Source: Thermoplasmata archaeon (lineage in GTDB: Archaea; Thermoplasmatota; Thermoplasmata; UBA10834). Taken from it: a stretch of 64,000 bases of DNA. Below, piece after piece: positions 6,485 to 16,475 of this stretch. The position numbers and the translations under genes were made by a program. The stretch lies in assembly GCA_041559015.1 (NCBI GenBank), contig JBFFED010000001.1, forward strand, positions 2,361-66,360. Direction: 5' to 3'. The first letter of the stretch is position 1. Every line of letters begins with the position of its first letter. Under the pieces are notes generated by a model. It ran no database searches, had not been told where the DNA came from, and saw nothing but the letters and a program-made list of their open reading frames with translations.

Positions 6485-6595
6485 GCGCGCCTGCGTCATG
6501 TTTATTCTTGCGCAGACGATACACGGGGCGGAGTTGGACGCATTCCGAGCATCCGGATAGAGATTCGGGACGCCACCGAGGACGACCTCCCGTCC

Positions 6596-7081
6596 GTGGT
6601 CAAGCTATGGGAGATGCTGGCGAAGCACCACGAGGGCGTCTCAGAGCACTTCCGGCTGGCCTGGGACAGCAAGAGGAACTGGGCCAAGTACCTCGACCAG
6701 AAGTTCTCTGAGGTCAGTACCAAGCTGATCGTGGCCGAGGAGGACGGGGAGATAGTGGGGTTCATGCTCTGCTTGTTGTCCCCCAACGCCCCGATATTCA
6801 AGGAGAGGAAGATAGGCGTCATATCGGATGTGTTCGTGCTCGAGGAGCGACGCAGGAAGGGTGTCACCCGCAAGATGCTGGACGTGGGCATCAGGTGGTT
6901 CAGGAAGAATAAGGTGAGGTTCGTGCAGCTTGGCGTGGCGCATCACAACATGGATGCGAGGGCGGCCTGGAGGAACCTCGGATTCGAGCCGTACATGATC
7001 CATAAGCGGCTCGACCTGGACAGGGATGACAGGCGTGAGAAGGTCAAGAGAATAGTGACCAGGAAGAAGGTCCGCGGATGA
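6596..7081 (+). CDS. GNAT-family N-acetyltransferase (start probably upstream, non-canonical)
   Basis: GNAT motifs (…GFMLCLLS…, RRRKGVTRKML, acetyl-CoA pocket). In-frame upstream sequence encodes IPSIRIEIRDATEDDLPS, the expected GNAT beta1/alpha1, with no ATG/GTG/TTG before the GTG at 6596. An ATT at about 6542 is preceded by a GGAG-like SD. Confidence 0.7.
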   Translation: MVKLWEMLAKHHEGVSEHFRLAWDSKRNWAKYLDQKFSEVSTKLIVAEEDGEIVGFMLCLLSPNAPIFKERKIGVISDVFVLEERRRKGVTRKMLDVGIRWFRKNKVRFVQLGVAHHNMDARAAWRNLGFEPYMIHKRLDLDRDDRREKVKRIVTRKKVRG

Positions 7082-11257: not shown

Positions 11258-12022
11258 TCAGACCCTCGCGTGCCGCCTCAGAACCTCGCTCCCCAGGAGG
11301 AGTATCTCAAATCCATTCAGCTCGCCCAGCAAGACGCCGTCGTCGTCGACCACGGGAAGGTCCTCCATGCTGTTGTCTATCATCTTCCTGAGCGCGGTGA
11401 TCAACTTGTCGTCCTGGTAGACCGTGACTGGCTTGACCATGTACTCTTCCACTGAGAACGGCAACACCCCCCTCTTGCTCCTGACCACGGGCCGGTCCTT
11501 GTCGAAGAGCGACAGGGAGCTCTCGATGGCTTTCAGCATCTGATTGAGCCCGATCATCCCCAGTAGACGCCTCCCGTCATCCACCACGTACGCGCTCCTC
11601 GTCCGAGGGTCCGCGAGGACCCTGTCCACGACCTCGTTGAGTATCATCCTCTGCGTGACGATTATCGGGTCGGTCACCACGAGCCTGAAGGCGTCCCGAA
11701 CATACCGGAATGAGAGTTCGTCAGCCATCCTCTCGAACATCCCTGCGCTCAGCTCCCGCTCGACTATCTCGAGCGCGGACCTGCCTGTCTGGGTCAGGGT
11801 GTGCTTCTTCCAGGTCCTCCTGCCAGGCTCCAATTGCTCGAGCACGCCCCTCGACTCCAGCTCCTTGAGGCCGGTGCTCACGTTCTGAATGGAGCGGCCA
11901 GAGTCCTGAGCAATCTCTGAAGCGCCTGCGAACTTGTGGTGCTTGAAGTACCTGATGGTCACGAGCCGTCTGTCGGATCTTATAATCCACTTCGCGATAT
12001 CCCTGGTGTCATTCTCCGCCAT
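11258..12022 (-). CDS. Transcriptional regulator with N-terminal winged-helix DNA-binding domain and a CBS domain pair
   Basis: wHTH region (…ASEIAQDSGRSIQNVSTGLKELESRGVLEQ…) followed by two CBS-like units (…DPIIVTQRMILNEVVDRVL…, …KPVTVYQDDKLITALRKMIDNSMEDLPVVDDDGVLLG…). Divergent from the opine-dehydrogenase operon. Confidence 0.7.
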   Translation of the reverse strand: MAENDTRDIAKWIIRSDRRLVTIRYFKHHKFAGASEIAQDSGRSIQNVSTGLKELESRGVLEQLEPGRRTWKKHTLTQTGRSALEIVERELSAGMFERMADELSFRYVRDAFRLVVTDPIIVTQRMILNEVVDRVLADPRTRSAYVVDDGRRLLGMIGLNQMLKAIESSLSLFDKDRPVVRSKRGVLPFSVEEYMVKPVTVYQDDKLITALRKMIDNSMEDLPVVDDDGVLLGELNGFEILLLGSEVLRRHARV

Positions 12023-12248
12023 GCTATCACTGAGCGAGCCGCAGGACTGGACTCTCTACCGCGCATGCCCTTCGATGATAATCGCTGGCAACCGTTTAAT
12101 AGTTATTCATCATTTATCATAATTAGTCATAGGGATGGCCCCTACTGATCCTCGCCATCTGTGAAACAGACCAGCTGGGGGCATCCCGCAAAGTTATCAC
12201 GAGGGTGTAAGTCTGCGTACCTCCAAATCGAGAGGTGAATCGAGGCCG

Positions 12249-13328
12249 ATTTTCGCGGTCCTTGGGGCCGGGCATGGCGGCCTGGCGATGGCCGGGCACC
12301 TGGCGATCATGGGCTTCCCCACGCGACTCTGGAACAGGTCGCGTGAGAGGATAGACAACGTCAACGACAGGGGCGGCGTCGAGGTCGAGGGGGTCATCGA
12401 GGGCTACGGCAATGTGGAGCTTGCCTCGGACGACATCGAGGAGGTGCTCGACGGCGCGGACGTCGTGATGGTAGTCGTGCCCGCACCTGGGCACAGAGAC
12501 GTCGCCGAGCTGTGCGCGCCCTATCTCACCAATAGGCACTCCGTGATACTCAATCCCGGCAGGACCTTCGGGGCGATAGAGTTCATGAACGTGCTCAGGC
12601 AGAAGAAGGTCAAGGCAAGGCCAATCGTCGCCGAGACGCAGACTTTCATCTATGTGTCAAGGCACGCGGAGCCGGCCAGGGCTAGGATAATCCAGATGAA
12701 GAACTCGGTGCCCTTGGCGGCCATCCCCGCGCACAAGACGCCCCAGGTCCTCGAAGTCGTGAGACGCGCCTTCCCGCAGTTCGTGGCAGCGAGCAACGTG
12801 CTCGAGACGAGCCTCGACAACATAGGTGCGATATTCCACCCGTCGCTCACAATCCTGAATGCCGCAAGGATAGAGTCCACGCACGGGGATTTCGAGTACT
12901 ACCTCGAGGGCATCTCGCCCTCTGCCGCAAGGGTCCTGGAATCGGCGGACGCGGAGCGGGTGGGCGTCGGTGCCGCACTCGGGATACATCTACACACAGC
13001 AAGGGAATGGCTCTATCTAGCCTACGACTCCCCTGGGAGAAGTCTCTACGAGGCGGTCCAGGCGACCCCCGGATACAAAGGCGTCCGCGCCCCCGCCACC
13101 TTGACCCACAGATACATCCTGGAGGACGTCCCCATGAGCCTCGTGCCCATCACATCAGTTGCAGGGCTCGCCGGGGTGAAGACCCCGACCCTCCAGACGC
13201 TCATACATCTTGCATCGACCATGCACGGCCGAGACTTCTGGGCCGAGGGAAGGACCGTCGAGAAGCTCGGGCTGGCAGGCATGTCAGTCAAGGACATCAG
13301 GATGCTGGCCGTCAGGGGTGTGCGCTGA
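12249..13328 (+). CDS. Opine (octopine/nopaline) dehydrogenase-family NAD(P)H oxidoreductase; start likely ATT upstream of the first ATG
   Basis: The track ORF begins at ATG 12288 (MAGHLAIMGF…). The in-frame upstream codons encode IFAVLGAGHGGLA, the GxGxxG Rossmann strand, with no canonical start. GAGGTGA SD-like sequence lies about 9 nt before the ATT at about 12249. C-terminal region matches the Octopine_DH-type domain. Confidence 0.75.
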   Translation: MFAVLGAGHGGLAMAGHLAIMGFPTRLWNRSRERIDNVNDRGGVEVEGVIEGYGNVELASDDIEEVLDGADVVMVVVPAPGHRDVAELCAPYLTNRHSVILNPGRTFGAIEFMNVLRQKKVKARPIVAETQTFIYVSRHAEPARARIIQMKNSVPLAAIPAHKTPQVLEVVRRAFPQFVAASNVLETSLDNIGAIFHPSLTILNAARIESTHGDFEYYLEGISPSAARVLESADAERVGVGAALGIHLHTAREWLYLAYDSPGRSLYEAVQATPGYKGVRAPATLTHRYILEDVPMSLVPITSVAGLAGVKTPTLQTLIHLASTMHGRDFWAEGRTVEKLGLAGMSVKDIRMLAVRGVR

Positions 13329-14986
13329 TTAGGATCCTTGGAGCGGCCATAGGCAACTGTGTCCACGTCGGCGGCATAAATGCGTTCCTGGGGCTGGCGA
13401 AGGGCATGGGATACGAGGTAGAGTTCATGGGCCCTGCGGTCCCGGTCAGGCAGCTGGTGCCCGCGATCAAGCTCAAGAACCCGGACATAGTCGCGCTGAG
13501 CTACAGGTTGACCGCAGAGTCTGCGGCACCCATCTTCGAGGAGCTGAAGGCGGAGATCGAGAAGGACCCTGCCCTTCAGGGCAGGCGATACCTCTTCGGG
13601 GGCACCGCCCCCGTTGCGATGGTCGCCCGCGACAGCGGCATCTTCGAGGCGGCGTTCGACGGCAGCGAGCCTGTGGAGGCCATCAAGGCGGCCCTTCAGA
13701 GAGTACCCGTACCCAAGGAGGAGAGGGTCTGGAGCCCGAGCCTCATAGGTCGGATAGAGAGCTCGTACCCCGTCCCGCTCCTTAGACACCATTTCGGGCT
13801 GCCGAGGATGAAGGACACCCTCGAGGGCGCGAGGAGAATCGCGGAGGCGGGTGTTCTGGACATACTCTCCCTGGCACCCGACCAGAACGCCCAGGAATCC
13901 TTCTTCCGGCCGATGGAGATGGACCCGAACCTGGACGGCGCCGGGGGCGCGCCCTTCAGGAGGCCTGAAGACCTGAAGGCGGTCTGGGACGCCACCAGAA
14001 GGGGCAGCCACCCGCTCCTGAGATGCTACAGCGGCACTCGCGACCTCATAAAGTGGGCGGAGATGCTCAAGTCAACGATCGACATTGCCTGGGGGGCAGT
14101 GCCGATCTCCTGGTACAGTGAGCTGGACGGCCGGTCGAAGCGCCCGCTCAGGGACGCGATCGCGGAGAACCAGGAGGCCATCAGGTGGTACGCCCGGAGC
14201 GGAATCCCGGTCGAGATAAACGAGTCGCATCAGTGGGCCCTGAGGGGCTGCGGCGACACTATAGAGCTTGCGATGGCGTACGTTGCCGCCTGCAACGCGC
14301 GCGCGCTCGGCGTTAGGGACTACGTTTGCCAGCTCATGTTCGACACGCCGAAGGGCATCTCGCCTTCCATGGACCTGGCGAAGATGCTCGCCAAGCTGGA
14401 ACTCGTCGAATCGCTCGCGAACGGCACGTTCAAAGTCATCAGGATGGTGAGGTCCGGGCTGGCATCCCTGTCACCTTCCCAGAATGAGGCGAAGGGCCAG
14501 CTCGCCGCGTCGATATACTCCGCCATGTCCCTTCAGCCGCACATAGTCCATGTCGTTGGTTTCAGCGAGGCCGACCACGTCGCCACGCCCCAGGAGATAA
14601 TCGAGAGCTGTCAGATAGCGAAGGGGGCCGTGGCCAAGGCCCTGCTTGGCATGCCGAGCCCCGAGGCCGATCCAAAGATCGCGGCCAGGAAGGCGCAGCT
14701 GCTTGAGGAGGTGAAGTTCCTCCTGGACGCGGTCAAGAGGACTGGCAGCAAGGAGGTCAAGGAGCCGCTCACATCGCCCGAGGTACTGTCAATGGCGGTG
14801 AAGCGCGGGCTCCTGGACGCCCCCGACCTCAAGGGGAACCCTGCAGCGCTCGGCTCGATCACGACCACGATCGTCAACGGCGCGTGCGTGGCAGTCGACA
14901 GGGCCTCGAACCTTCCGATTCTGGAGAGGGACCGGGTGGCGAAGCTCGCAACAACCGAGGAGGACCTCGACCTCGTGGAGATATAG
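13328..14986 (+). CDS. Fusion of MutS-like B12-binding-type domain and GlmE-like domain (methylaspartate/glutamate-mutase-like)
   Basis: N-terminal about 130 aa resemble the glutamate-mutase S subunit fold (RILGAAIGNCVHVGG…GYEVEFMGPAV…DIVALSYRLT…) but lack the Asp of DxHxxG. The remainder aligns in pattern to GlmE/MamB (…GAVPISWYSELDGRS…IRWYARSGIPVEINESHQWAL…). The only in-frame ATG/GTG/TTG is far upstream inside the opine dehydrogenase gene, so start is placed at the ATT overlapping the opine dehydrogenase stop. Confidence 0.6.
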   Translation: MRILGAAIGNCVHVGGINAFLGLAKGMGYEVEFMGPAVPVRQLVPAIKLKNPDIVALSYRLTAESAAPIFEELKAEIEKDPALQGRRYLFGGTAPVAMVARDSGIFEAAFDGSEPVEAIKAALQRVPVPKEERVWSPSLIGRIESSYPVPLLRHHFGLPRMKDTLEGARRIAEAGVLDILSLAPDQNAQESFFRPMEMDPNLDGAGGAPFRRPEDLKAVWDATRRGSHPLLRCYSGTRDLIKWAEMLKSTIDIAWGAVPISWYSELDGRSKRPLRDAIAENQEAIRWYARSGIPVEINESHQWALRGCGDTIELAMAYVAACNARALGVRDYVCQLMFDTPKGISPSMDLAKMLAKLELVESLANGTFKVIRMVRSGLASLSPSQNEAKGQLAASIYSAMSLQPHIVHVVGFSEADHVATPQEIIESCQIAKGAVAKALLGMPSPEADPKIAARKAQLLEEVKFLLDAVKRTGSKEVKEPLTSPEVLSMAVKRGLLDAPDLKGNPAALGSITTTIVNGACVAVDRASNLPILERDRVAKLATTEEDLDLVEI

Positions 14987-14999
14987 GAGTTCGGATACG

Positions 15000-16475
15000 A
15001 TGCAAGGGATAGCAGGCACATATGGTTCGCCTGACCGGATACTGGCAAGACGGATGGTCGAGAGGATCTCGCACAGGGGTCCAGACAGGAAGGACATGAT
15101 CGAAGATGACGGACTGGCAATCGCGGCTCGTAAGCCCAGGCCGTCCCCGAAAGGCACCGCCAGGGCAATCGTGGAAGGAGATGGTATCGCAGTAGCGTCG
15201 GACAGCTACCTGTTCAACTCGGAGCTCCTCAAGGAGCTCTTCCTGGAGGACTCGGATGAGGACGCCGGAGACGCCGACCTCCTCATAGACATGTACACGG
15301 CCATAGGGACGAAGATGTTCGGGTACCTCGATGGGGCTTTCGCAATCGCGATATCCGACAACGGCCGGCTGGTGCTCGCGAGGGACAGGTACGGACTGAA
15401 ACCCATGTACATCTCCGGGGGCGTCCGCGAGGGCACCTTCTCCTCTGAGATCAAGTCCCAGCTCGTCGCGGGGGACGAGTTCGTGCCCTTCCCTCCAGGG
15501 AAGGTCCTCGTGGCCGGCAAGGGCTTCTCGCCGATGTGGCCTCGTAAGCCCCCGGTGAGCAGGAGCCGCCCGTCAGGAGACAAGCCGAAGAAACTCCGAC
15601 AGCTGGTGATCGACGGGGTGAGGAGCTGCTGCCGGGAAGGGCAGGGTCTGAACGTCCTGCTCAGCGGAGGGATAGACAGCAGCGTGGTTGCCGCAGCGGC
15701 GTCCGAGGTGACGGACGGGCTGTCAACTGTCTGCGTGGGGACCGAGCGGAGCTCGGACCTCAGGATGGCGAGGAAGGTCGCGGAGAGGATAGGCTCCGAC
15801 CACAGGGAGAAGGTATACAGCACCGAGGAGATGCTCGACGTCCTAGAAGAAGTGGTCTGCGCGGCCGAGAGCTTCGATTTCCCGCTCATCAGGAGCTGCA
15901 TACCAAACTACATGGCCACGCACCTGTTTGACGACAGGCACCTGGTCACCTTGTGTGGTGAGGGGGGCGACGAGATCTTCGCGGGGTACGATTACATGCG
16001 CGCCATCAGCGGTGACGAGGCTCTGAGGAGGGAGCGCAGGAAACTGCTCAGGACAGGTTGGATGACGGGGTTCCAGAGGGTTGACAGGATGACCGCGAGC
16101 GCGTCCCTAGACGGGCGCATTCCCCTGATGGGCAGGGACATGGTCGATTTCGGGATGTCGCTCGACAGGAGGGACCTGATAGGCCCCGGCATCGAGCACA
16201 GCAAACTGATCCTGAGGAAGGCGTTCCAGAAGTCCCTGCCGAAGGAAGTCGCGTGGAGGAGGAAGCAGAGGTTCAGCGACGGCGCTGGTTCCATCCAAGC
16301 CCTGGTGTCGATAGCCGAGGATATGATATCCGATGCCGAATTCGAGAAGGAGCGGAGGGTGCTCCCCAGGGGAAGGATAAGGACGAAGGAAGAGCTCCTG
16401 TACTACCGTTACTTCACCGAGGAGTTCCCGTCCAAGAGCGCGGCGGCGGCGGTCGGCTTCACTCCTAGGCCTTAG
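15000..16475 (+). CDS. Asparagine-synthetase-family (AsnB-like) ATP-dependent amide synthetase lacking the N-terminal Cys nucleophile
   Basis: MQGIAGTYG… has Gln where class-II amidotransferases have Cys2. Intact PP-loop SGGIDSS and C-terminal synthetase domain. 491 aa. Confidence 0.85.
   Translation: MQGIAGTYGSPDRILARRMVERISHRGPDRKDMIEDDGLAIAARKPRPSPKGTARAIVEGDGIAVASDSYLFNSELLKELFLEDSDEDAGDADLLIDMYTAIGTKMFGYLDGAFAIAISDNGRLVLARDRYGLKPMYISGGVREGTFSSEIKSQLVAGDEFVPFPPGKVLVAGKGFSPMWPRKPPVSRSRPSGDKPKKLRQLVIDGVRSCCREGQGLNVLLSGGIDSSVVAAAASEVTDGLSTVCVGTERSSDLRMARKVAERIGSDHREKVYSTEEMLDVLEEVVCAAESFDFPLIRSCIPNYMATHLFDDRHLVTLCGEGGDEIFAGYDYMRAISGDEALRRERRKLLRTGWMTGFQRVDRMTASASLDGRIPLMGRDMVDFGMSLDRRDLIGPGIEHSKLILRKAFQKSLPKEVAWRRKQRFSDGAGSIQALVSIAEDMISDAEFEKERRVLPRGRIRTKEELLYYRYFTEEFPSKSAAAAVGFTPRP

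Follow-up and report, generated by a model that had tools for sequence, protein, structure and literature searches.

Start codons other than AUG, GUG and UUG are known from bacteria, where infC and pcnB of Escherichia coli begin with AUU and where CUG, AUU, AUC and AUA are counted as rare starts in translation table 11, and from eukaryotes, where CUG is the most efficient of the near-cognate codons and is read by the initiator methionyl-tRNA (Met-tRNAi) under the control of eIF1 and eIF2. The present analysis concerns a comparable archaeal case, an opine-dehydrogenase-family gene in a stretch of 64,000 nucleotides (nt) from the contig JBFFED010000001.1 of a Thermoplasmata archaeon; the whole of this stretch is referred to below as the window, and all positions are given in its numbering. 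The public annotations start the gene at an ATG at 12288-12290 (plus strand), with a product of 346 amino acids (aa), and an initial annotation made from the letters of the window had proposed an ATT at about 12249. Comparison with orthologous loci indicates that translation of the dehydrogenase probably starts at neither AUG 12288 nor AUU 12249 but at a CUG at 12213-12215.

The gene resembles the bacterial cases in that it is led by a Shine-Dalgarno (SD) sequence and carries an initiator other than AUG, GUG or UUG that is kept across species, presumably with a low rate of translation. It differs from them in the codon, which is CUG, and in the host, an archaeon using aIF1, aIF1A and aIF2 and not IF3, and no autoregulatory logic is known for it. 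The likeness to CUG initiation in eukaryotes lies in the homology of the archaeal factors, in the same mismatch at the first codon position and in a product that would begin with Met, whereas the site in the window would be picked by SD pairing on a leadered prokaryotic mRNA and not by scanning and Kozak context. Among closely related prokaryotic genomes, a switch from UUG to CUG was recorded for one of 2,468 ancestral UUG starts (PMC5622118). Initiation profiling in H. volcanii placed near-cognate codons at about 30% of the putative alternative initiation sites, and these were set aside (PMC7261190).

The best solved relative of the encoded protein is N-(1-D-carboxyethyl)-L-norvaline dehydrogenase, an opine dehydrogenase of Arthrobacter sp. 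1C (PDB 1BG6; E=4e-78). Residues 13-364 of the window protein align with residues 6-356 of 1BG6, residue 6 of the latter being matched to the Ile of ATT 12249. An N-terminal Rossmann domain with a GxGxxG loop and a C-terminal Octopine_DH helical domain are common to both proteins. The window protein differs in having a 12-residue basic N-terminal tail and GAGHGG where 1BG6 has GLGNGG, and its gene lies in a conserved operon together with genes for a B12-binding-domain protein and an asparagine-synthase-like protein.

Coding sequence upstream of ATG 12288

In the frame of ATG 12288 (plus strand) the sequence is open from 12165, immediately after a TGA at 12162-12164, and the 41 codons spanning 12165-12287 include no ATG, GTG or TTG, as the initial annotation had stated. 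Translation of the codons 5' of ATG 12288 gives NRPAGGIPQSYHEGVSLRTSKSRGESRPIFAVLGAGHGGLA-MAGH (in its final part ...SYHEGVSLRTSKSRGESRPIFAVLGAGHGGLA-MAGH), which is the same order of SRGESRP, strand and MAGH that had been written down earlier. By chance alone, 41 successive codons would lack a canonical start with a probability of approximately (58/61)^41 = 0.13, which is not rare; the weight of the start-less stretch lies in its conserved motif, which is under purifying selection, and not in its length. A hidden indel or other sequencing error, against which a check had been advised, is excluded, since over the 260 nt upstream the window does not differ from five assemblies (L001-L005, four NCBI metagenome-assembled genomes plus one from Logan), and other lineages show the same state. 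The called 346-aa protein is present on five independently assembled contigs. Genomes assembled from the source samples include GCA_041553355.1, GCA_041561435.1, GCA_041554045.1 and GCA_041557035.1, and the sequencing run is SRR29257318. The syntenic relatives used in the comparisons below are labelled as Thermoplasmata or Thermoplasmatota archaea.

Membership in the opine-dehydrogenase family, likewise claimed initially, is borne out by a match to the Pfam Octopine_DH C-terminal alpha-helical domain (PF02317; E=3.5e-47) over profile positions 2-150 of 150; a search of the dehydrogenase for NCBIfam equivalogs matched none. The Pfam profiles NAD_Gly3P_dh_N, NAD_binding_2 and ApbA begin at residues 10-11 of a translation from 12225, that is, at 12252-12255, NAD_Gly3P_dh_N (E=1.2e-9) starting at residue 11, and the Rossmann domain is therefore kept only if translation begins upstream of 12252. 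The earlier contention that a start at ATG 12288 deletes the NAD(P)-binding beta1-loop thus agrees with the profiles. The loop itself, GAGHGG of the GxGxxG type (12264-12281, plus strand), occurs in all of the loci analysed (searched as G[AT]GHGG). The Met of ATG 12288 is internal (GLAMAGH), is invariant in an alignment of 33 sequences (A1) and occurs in every motif-matching locus.

Evidence for translation of the upstream codons was drawn from nine distinct members of the closest clade (the window, L166-L169, L006, L007, L086 and L088), which share 83-91% protein identity. With codons counted from the first Gly of GAGHGG, the 13 codons from the ATT to just before ATG 12288 (codons -5 to +7) have 0, 1 and 11 variable sites at codon positions 1, 2 and 3, respectively (p=4.7e-5). 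This third-position bias means that the 13 codons before ATG 12288 are translated and are under purifying selection; therefore, ATG 12288 is not the functional start, and a pseudogene is ruled out. The general proposal of non-canonical initiation upstream of ATG 12288 was thus right, as the region is translated and holds no canonical codon. Further upstream, the basic N-terminal tail RTSKSRGESRP occupies the eleven codons before strand beta1 (12216-12248, plus strand) and is homologous to the tail xxKKRKxERKP, rich in Lys and Arg, of those orthologues that have a canonical start. Within the clade its codons for Ser, Arg, Gly and Pro show synonymous variation. The redefined coding sequence (12213-13328, plus strand) consists of 371 codons and a TGA, the orthologues being 371-372 aa long. 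As judged from these comparisons, the gene most likely encodes a complete 371-residue enzyme of the opine-dehydrogenase family, the characteristic reaction of which is the reductive condensation of an amino acid with a 2-oxo acid.

CTG 12213 and the starts of orthologues

The position of the start was examined in approximately 60 distinct loci, the DNA of which was aligned on the GAGHGG motif, with codons counted back from the first Gly. Most of the 120 best homologues are 371-373 aa long (modal length 372 aa) and begin with M-x(10-12)-[KR]-P-[TVI]-FAVLGAGHGG. The usual start of the orthologues is codon -17, at times -16 or -15, and codon -17 of the window is CTG 12213 (12213-12215, plus strand), 12 codons upstream of ATT 12249. 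The CTG aligns with the ATG, GTG or TTG starts of most orthologues, to which it is orthologous; an alignment of orthologous start regions, suggested initially as a check on ATT 12249, hence leads to CTG 12213 and not to the ATT. An automated pick of the start in the 34 distinct loci that carry a conserved promoter box (see below) gave ATG in 12, TTG in 10, GTG in seven, CTG in four and ACG in one. This pick favoured any canonical codon, L167 and L168 being scored as GTG at -19 despite their CTG at -17, and the count is exclusive of L086-L088 and L083, in which the promoter filter found no match.

CTG 12213 is preceded by the SD-like sequence GAGGGTG (12201-12207, plus strand) and a 5-nt spacer, TAAGT; the same SD and spacer occur in L006 and L007, with TTG in place of CTG. 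A G-rich SD (GAGGGTG, GGTGA, GGTG or GGAGG) is conserved at the same register before codon -17, -16 or -15 in all Thermoplasmata orthologues. The spacing in canonical SD-led genes of the window (PGDH, Trm112, aminotransferase, EMG1 and the CBS regulator) is 5-6 nt, which the 5 nt before CTG match. The predicted energy of the SD/anti-SD duplex does not differ among the start-codon classes, so that no stronger SD compensates for CTG.

CTG at codon -17 is found in the window, L166, L167, L168, L169, L086/L087 and L088 (83-91% aa identity) and, independently, in L083 (72%). In a neighbour-joining tree L006 and L007, the sole bearers of TTG, are nested inside the CTG clade, and the outgroups have TTG or ATG. 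Since one gain and one reversion suffice for this pattern and the alternative takes five independent gains, the tree points to a CTG that is ancestral to the clade and has been kept through about 17% protein divergence, and not to a fresh lesion. Two members of the clade narrow the choice of codons further: L088 has a TGA at -18, and before the motif it offers only two near-cognate codons, CTG -17 and, within strand beta1, Leu codon -1, while L169 lacks a canonical codon in the whole open frame. Selection maintains the NAD-binding strand in each of these lineages, and the only initiator common to them is therefore codon -17. A TTG at -24, from which the protein P0005 is annotated (378 aa), is an unlikely start, being upstream of the SD and beyond the stop at -18 of the sister lineage L088.

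Codons of this kind are also met at greater distance. L112 has CTG at -15 behind AGGAGGGTG, L110 has ACG at codon -16 where its relatives L100 and L014 have ATG, and L050, with ACG at -15, lacks a canonical codon. The independent presence of ACG or CTG in distant Thermoplasmata lineages, at the SD-defined start either of the dehydrogenase (L110, L112 and L050) or of the B12-binding gene described below (L009 and L017), suggests that near-cognate starts recur in the group.

According to the mechanism proposed here, the 3' end of the 16S rRNA would pair with GAGGGUG (12201-12207) of a leadered mRNA, the 5' end of which is predicted to lie near 12130, and so position the small ribosomal subunit, and the initiator Met-tRNA would read the near-cognate CUG 5 nt downstream with a first-base mismatch, as at UUG or GUG. 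The predicted product would begin Met-Arg-Thr-Ser-Lys-Ser-Arg-Gly-Glu-Ser-Arg-Pro and continue with the Rossmann strand IFAVLGAGHGG, and it would contain the internal tryptic peptide GESRPIFAVLGAGHGGLAMAGHLAIMGFPTR. That the CUG is decoded as an initiator, and with what efficiency, we infer from the comparisons above. The weak CUG codon probably keeps expression low; roughly half of the other lineages have UUG or GUG in this gene.

Weighing of the alternative starts

Several points count against CUG 12213 as the start. The 11 tail codons from CTG to ATT, taken alone, have 6, 7 and 8 variable sites at the three codon positions, an excess at the third position that is not significant, and the selection data therefore place no precise start between -17 and -5. 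Within the clade, possible canonical alternatives exist in L166 (ATG at -7) and in L167 and L168 (GTG at -19, within the SD), and the window alone pairs an ATT at -5 with GAGGTGA, possibly as a lineage-specific compensatory start. The support for CUG initiation is entirely comparative, and CUG initiates poorly in those prokaryotes in which it has been tested, as in reporter work with E. coli. A 2020 review of archaeal initiation gives AUG, GUG and UUG only (PMC7531240).

The start favoured by the initial annotation is AUU 12249 (12249-12251, plus strand; codon -5, Ile, the first residue of strand beta1), directed by GAGGUGA, from which the protein would begin at the strand as M-FAVLGAGHGG. GAGGTGA is present as had been described (12232-12238, plus strand), although 10 nt and not about 9 nt before the ATT, and all of its 7 nt match the anti-SD complement exactly. 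Rare initiation at ATT is recognised in prokaryotes (table 11; infC of E. coli), and a start of ATT or ATA is apparently used by a GNAT acetyltransferase gene of the same genome. Moreover, 1BG6 has just five residues before beta1, which implies that the tail is not structurally required, and both the ATT at -5 and GAGGTGA are derived states of the window lineage, compatible with compensation for a weak CUG. However, ATT occurs at -5 in the window lineage only, the other eight clade members having ACT or ACC (Thr), and GAGGTGA coincides with the coding codons AGA-GGT-GAA (Arg-Gly-Glu), replaced by synonymous GGC in four relatives and by AAG-GAC in two. The motif is also found in L167 and, as GAGGTGAC, in L168, where codon -5 is Thr and unable to initiate. 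ATT 12249 follows the end of GGTG by 11 nt, as against 5-6 nt at real starts in the window. Ile or Val at -5 occurs as well in orthologues with a canonical upstream start (P0017, P0023 and L009), and Ile at this position is therefore an ordinary residue variant. Initiation at AUU would further leave unexplained the translation of the same motif in L167, L169, L086 and L088. An AUU start with GAGGUGA as its SD is thus considered unlikely, while the codon may act as a minor, auxiliary or secondary start in the window lineage.

The remaining explanations dispense with a near-cognate start altogether. AUG 12288, the first canonical start and the choice of every annotation pipeline, would yield a 346-aa protein without the dinucleotide-binding loop, implying either a decaying gene or a non-catalytic product. 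The strong purifying selection on the 13 upstream codons in nine lineages and the invariance of this Met as an internal residue speak against it, as does the lack of an SD before it; in L007 (P0002), which has a usable TTG at -17, the gene is also annotated from the internal ATG, so that its 346-aa call reflects a preference of gene callers for ATG. We regard this start as extremely improbable. Scarcely better placed is the suggestion that the DNA or the RNA differs from the reading given here. One added T in the T4 run at 12250-12253 would put an out-of-frame GTG at 12235 in frame, but the five assemblies agree at every base and the relatives have a T3 run and no conserved out-of-frame GTG; a frameshift from GTG 12235 is rejected as well, neither the slippery run nor the GTG being conserved in relatives. 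An ATG at 12135 is in frame with the dehydrogenase and could be joined to it by read-through of TGA 12162. This too is rejected, because relatives differ in the stop codon (TGA, TAG or TAA), L088 has ACG in place of the ATG, and in L169 a single inserted base falls within the short reading frame; there is therefore no read-through start or recoding site for the dehydrogenase. Editing of C to U would convert CUG to UUG, and the CTG and ACG start variants of the family are each one such change away from UUG or AUG; it would leave the ATT and ATA of the GNAT gene unexplained, and C-to-U editing of mRNA is not known from archaea.

Leader, operon and further genes without a canonical start

A conserved AT-rich box of 59 nt (12074-12132; GATGATAATCGC...TTTAATAGTTATTCATCATTTATCATAATTAGTCATAG) lies in the interval that separates the dehydrogenase operon from the divergent CBS/HTH regulator gene (11258-12022, minus strand). 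It hardly varies among orthologous loci down to a protein identity of about 70% and is probably a shared archaeal promoter/operator. Gene callers have wrongly translated this box as IIADKDLIVIH in P0016, P0034 and P0039. It is followed by a predicted hairpin in the 5' leader (12132-12187, plus strand), the arms of which, GGGATGGCCCC (12132-12142) and GGGGGCATCCC (12177-12187), enclose a C-rich loop. When each leader was folded separately, the same stem was predicted in most of the 33 distinct orthologous leaders, with differing arm sequences such as the covarying pairs GGGATGTCCCC/GGGGACATCCC, GGAACGCACA/TGTGCGTTCC and GAGCGCACTG/CAGTGCGCTC. Complementarity of the arms averaged 8.97/10 within a sequence and 7.58/10 when arms were swapped between sequences. 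Alignment of the leaders with MAFFT followed by RNAalifold gave no consensus structure, the 3' arm being misaligned. An Rfam scan of 12000-12320 gave no match near any gathering score, and the whole window yields only two tRNAs. The hairpin is accordingly put forward as a candidate cis-regulatory RNA. Inside it lies a nine-codon upstream open reading frame, MAPTDPRHL* (ATG to TGA; 12135-12164, plus strand), which shares the frame of the dehydrogenase and which the closest relatives retain as M[SP]P[TSP]APRH[LQV], apart from the changes in L088 and L169 mentioned above.

The next gene of the operon (13325-14986, plus strand) encodes an N-terminal B12-binding domain followed by about 430 aa without a Pfam match, and its start shows the same pattern. 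A CTG-ATT at 13325-13330 (plus strand) overlaps the stop of the dehydrogenase (TGA, 13326-13328), the sequence ...cgCTGATTAGGATCCTT reading CTG(13325)-ATT(13328)-AGG-ATC-CTT, and the candidate N-termini of the protein are (M)IRILGAAIGNCVHVGGINAFLGLAK or LIRILG.... If translation starts at the CTG, residue 3 of the product is the first of the Pfam B12-binding domain. The public start, ATG 13406, lies 27 codons past CTG 13325 and 26 past ATT 13328 and strips 27 conserved residues (LIRILGAAIGNCVHVGGINAFLGLAKG), cutting into the domain. As in translationally coupled ATGA and GTGA overlaps, the gene starts on a codon that overlaps the TGA of the dehydrogenase, behind a conserved GGGGTG; this clade differs in having CTGA, so that the re-initiation codon would also be near-cognate. 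Among 57 distinct loci the stop-overlapping codon (xTGA) is ATG in 30, GTG in 16, CTG in ten and TTG in one, and in seven loci (the window, L006, L007, L166, L169, L009 and L017) CTG stands at the overlap without an adjacent canonical codon.

The asparagine-synthase-B-like protein encoded further downstream (15000-16475) has M-Q-G-I-A-G at its N-terminus, and its relatives M-[QE]-G-I-A-G, where M-C-G-I is usual. It thus lacks the Cys that serves class II glutamine amidotransferases as N-terminal nucleophile, and the glutaminase domain is therefore probably inactive or repurposed.

A third gene without a canonical start encodes the GNAT acetyltransferase (6485-7081). In the stop-to-stop frame no canonical codon occurs before residue 38, and the GNAT Pfam profiles begin at residues 26-27. 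The likely start, which would give the N-terminus (M)PSIR, is ATT 6542, which follows GGCGGAG and an 8-nt spacer (6527-6544, plus strand); GGAG (6530-6533), the 8 nt and the ATT are conserved in L170 and L171, L172 has ATA behind the conserved GGAG, and the 60 nt before the ATT have no protein-level conservation. Three of about 55 window genes (the dehydrogenase, the B12-binding gene and the GNAT acetyltransferase) thus lack a canonical start; three cases had also been counted initially. Of the other syntenic genes compared in the same four genomes, most show a conserved start of ATG, GTG or TTG, and a few either could not be aligned at the start or gave no match. Long stop-to-start gaps in PGDH (4715), the epimerase (3681), EMG1, PurP, the AsnB-like gene, the MASE3 histidine kinase and a POR-like gene are not further cases, as none of their Pfam domains extends upstream of the canonical start. 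EamA and MFS genes that appear non-canonical at the positions called in relatives have canonical codons further upstream in the window.

For the annotation of these genomes, the results mean that the 346-aa entries of the dehydrogenase (P0001-P0004, P0006-P0009 and several more distant clusters) are without the NAD(P)-binding loop, and that the B12-binding protein and the GNAT acetyltransferase are truncated likewise. Further entries of 346-347 aa, seen as protein records only, are P0044, P0046, P0049, P0052, P0054, P0056, P0059, P0063, P0073, P0090 and P0093. The conserved promoter/operator box, together with the covarying hairpin that has no Rfam match, provides a candidate regulatory element of the dehydrogenase operon.

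A conserved CUG initiator in an archaeal gene would have its precedent in bacteria, from which near-cognate initiation is already known. The occurrence of such starts in three different genes, and their retention by several lineages through 10-30% protein divergence, also raise the tentative and as yet rather doubtful idea that this Thermoplasmata clade tolerates near-cognate initiators (CUG, AUU/AUA and ACG) as ordinary, evolutionarily stable starts on SD-led or coupled genes. If true, this would be the first comparative evidence of conserved CUG/AUU initiation in Archaea, and standard gene callers would truncate a few percent of the proteins in these genomes. The dehydrogenase offers a concrete, testable case of a CUG initiator apparently maintained over a long evolutionary time in an archaeon, and, as archaea choose their starts with factors homologous to those of eukaryotes, loci of this kind could help to show how the stringency of initiation is set.

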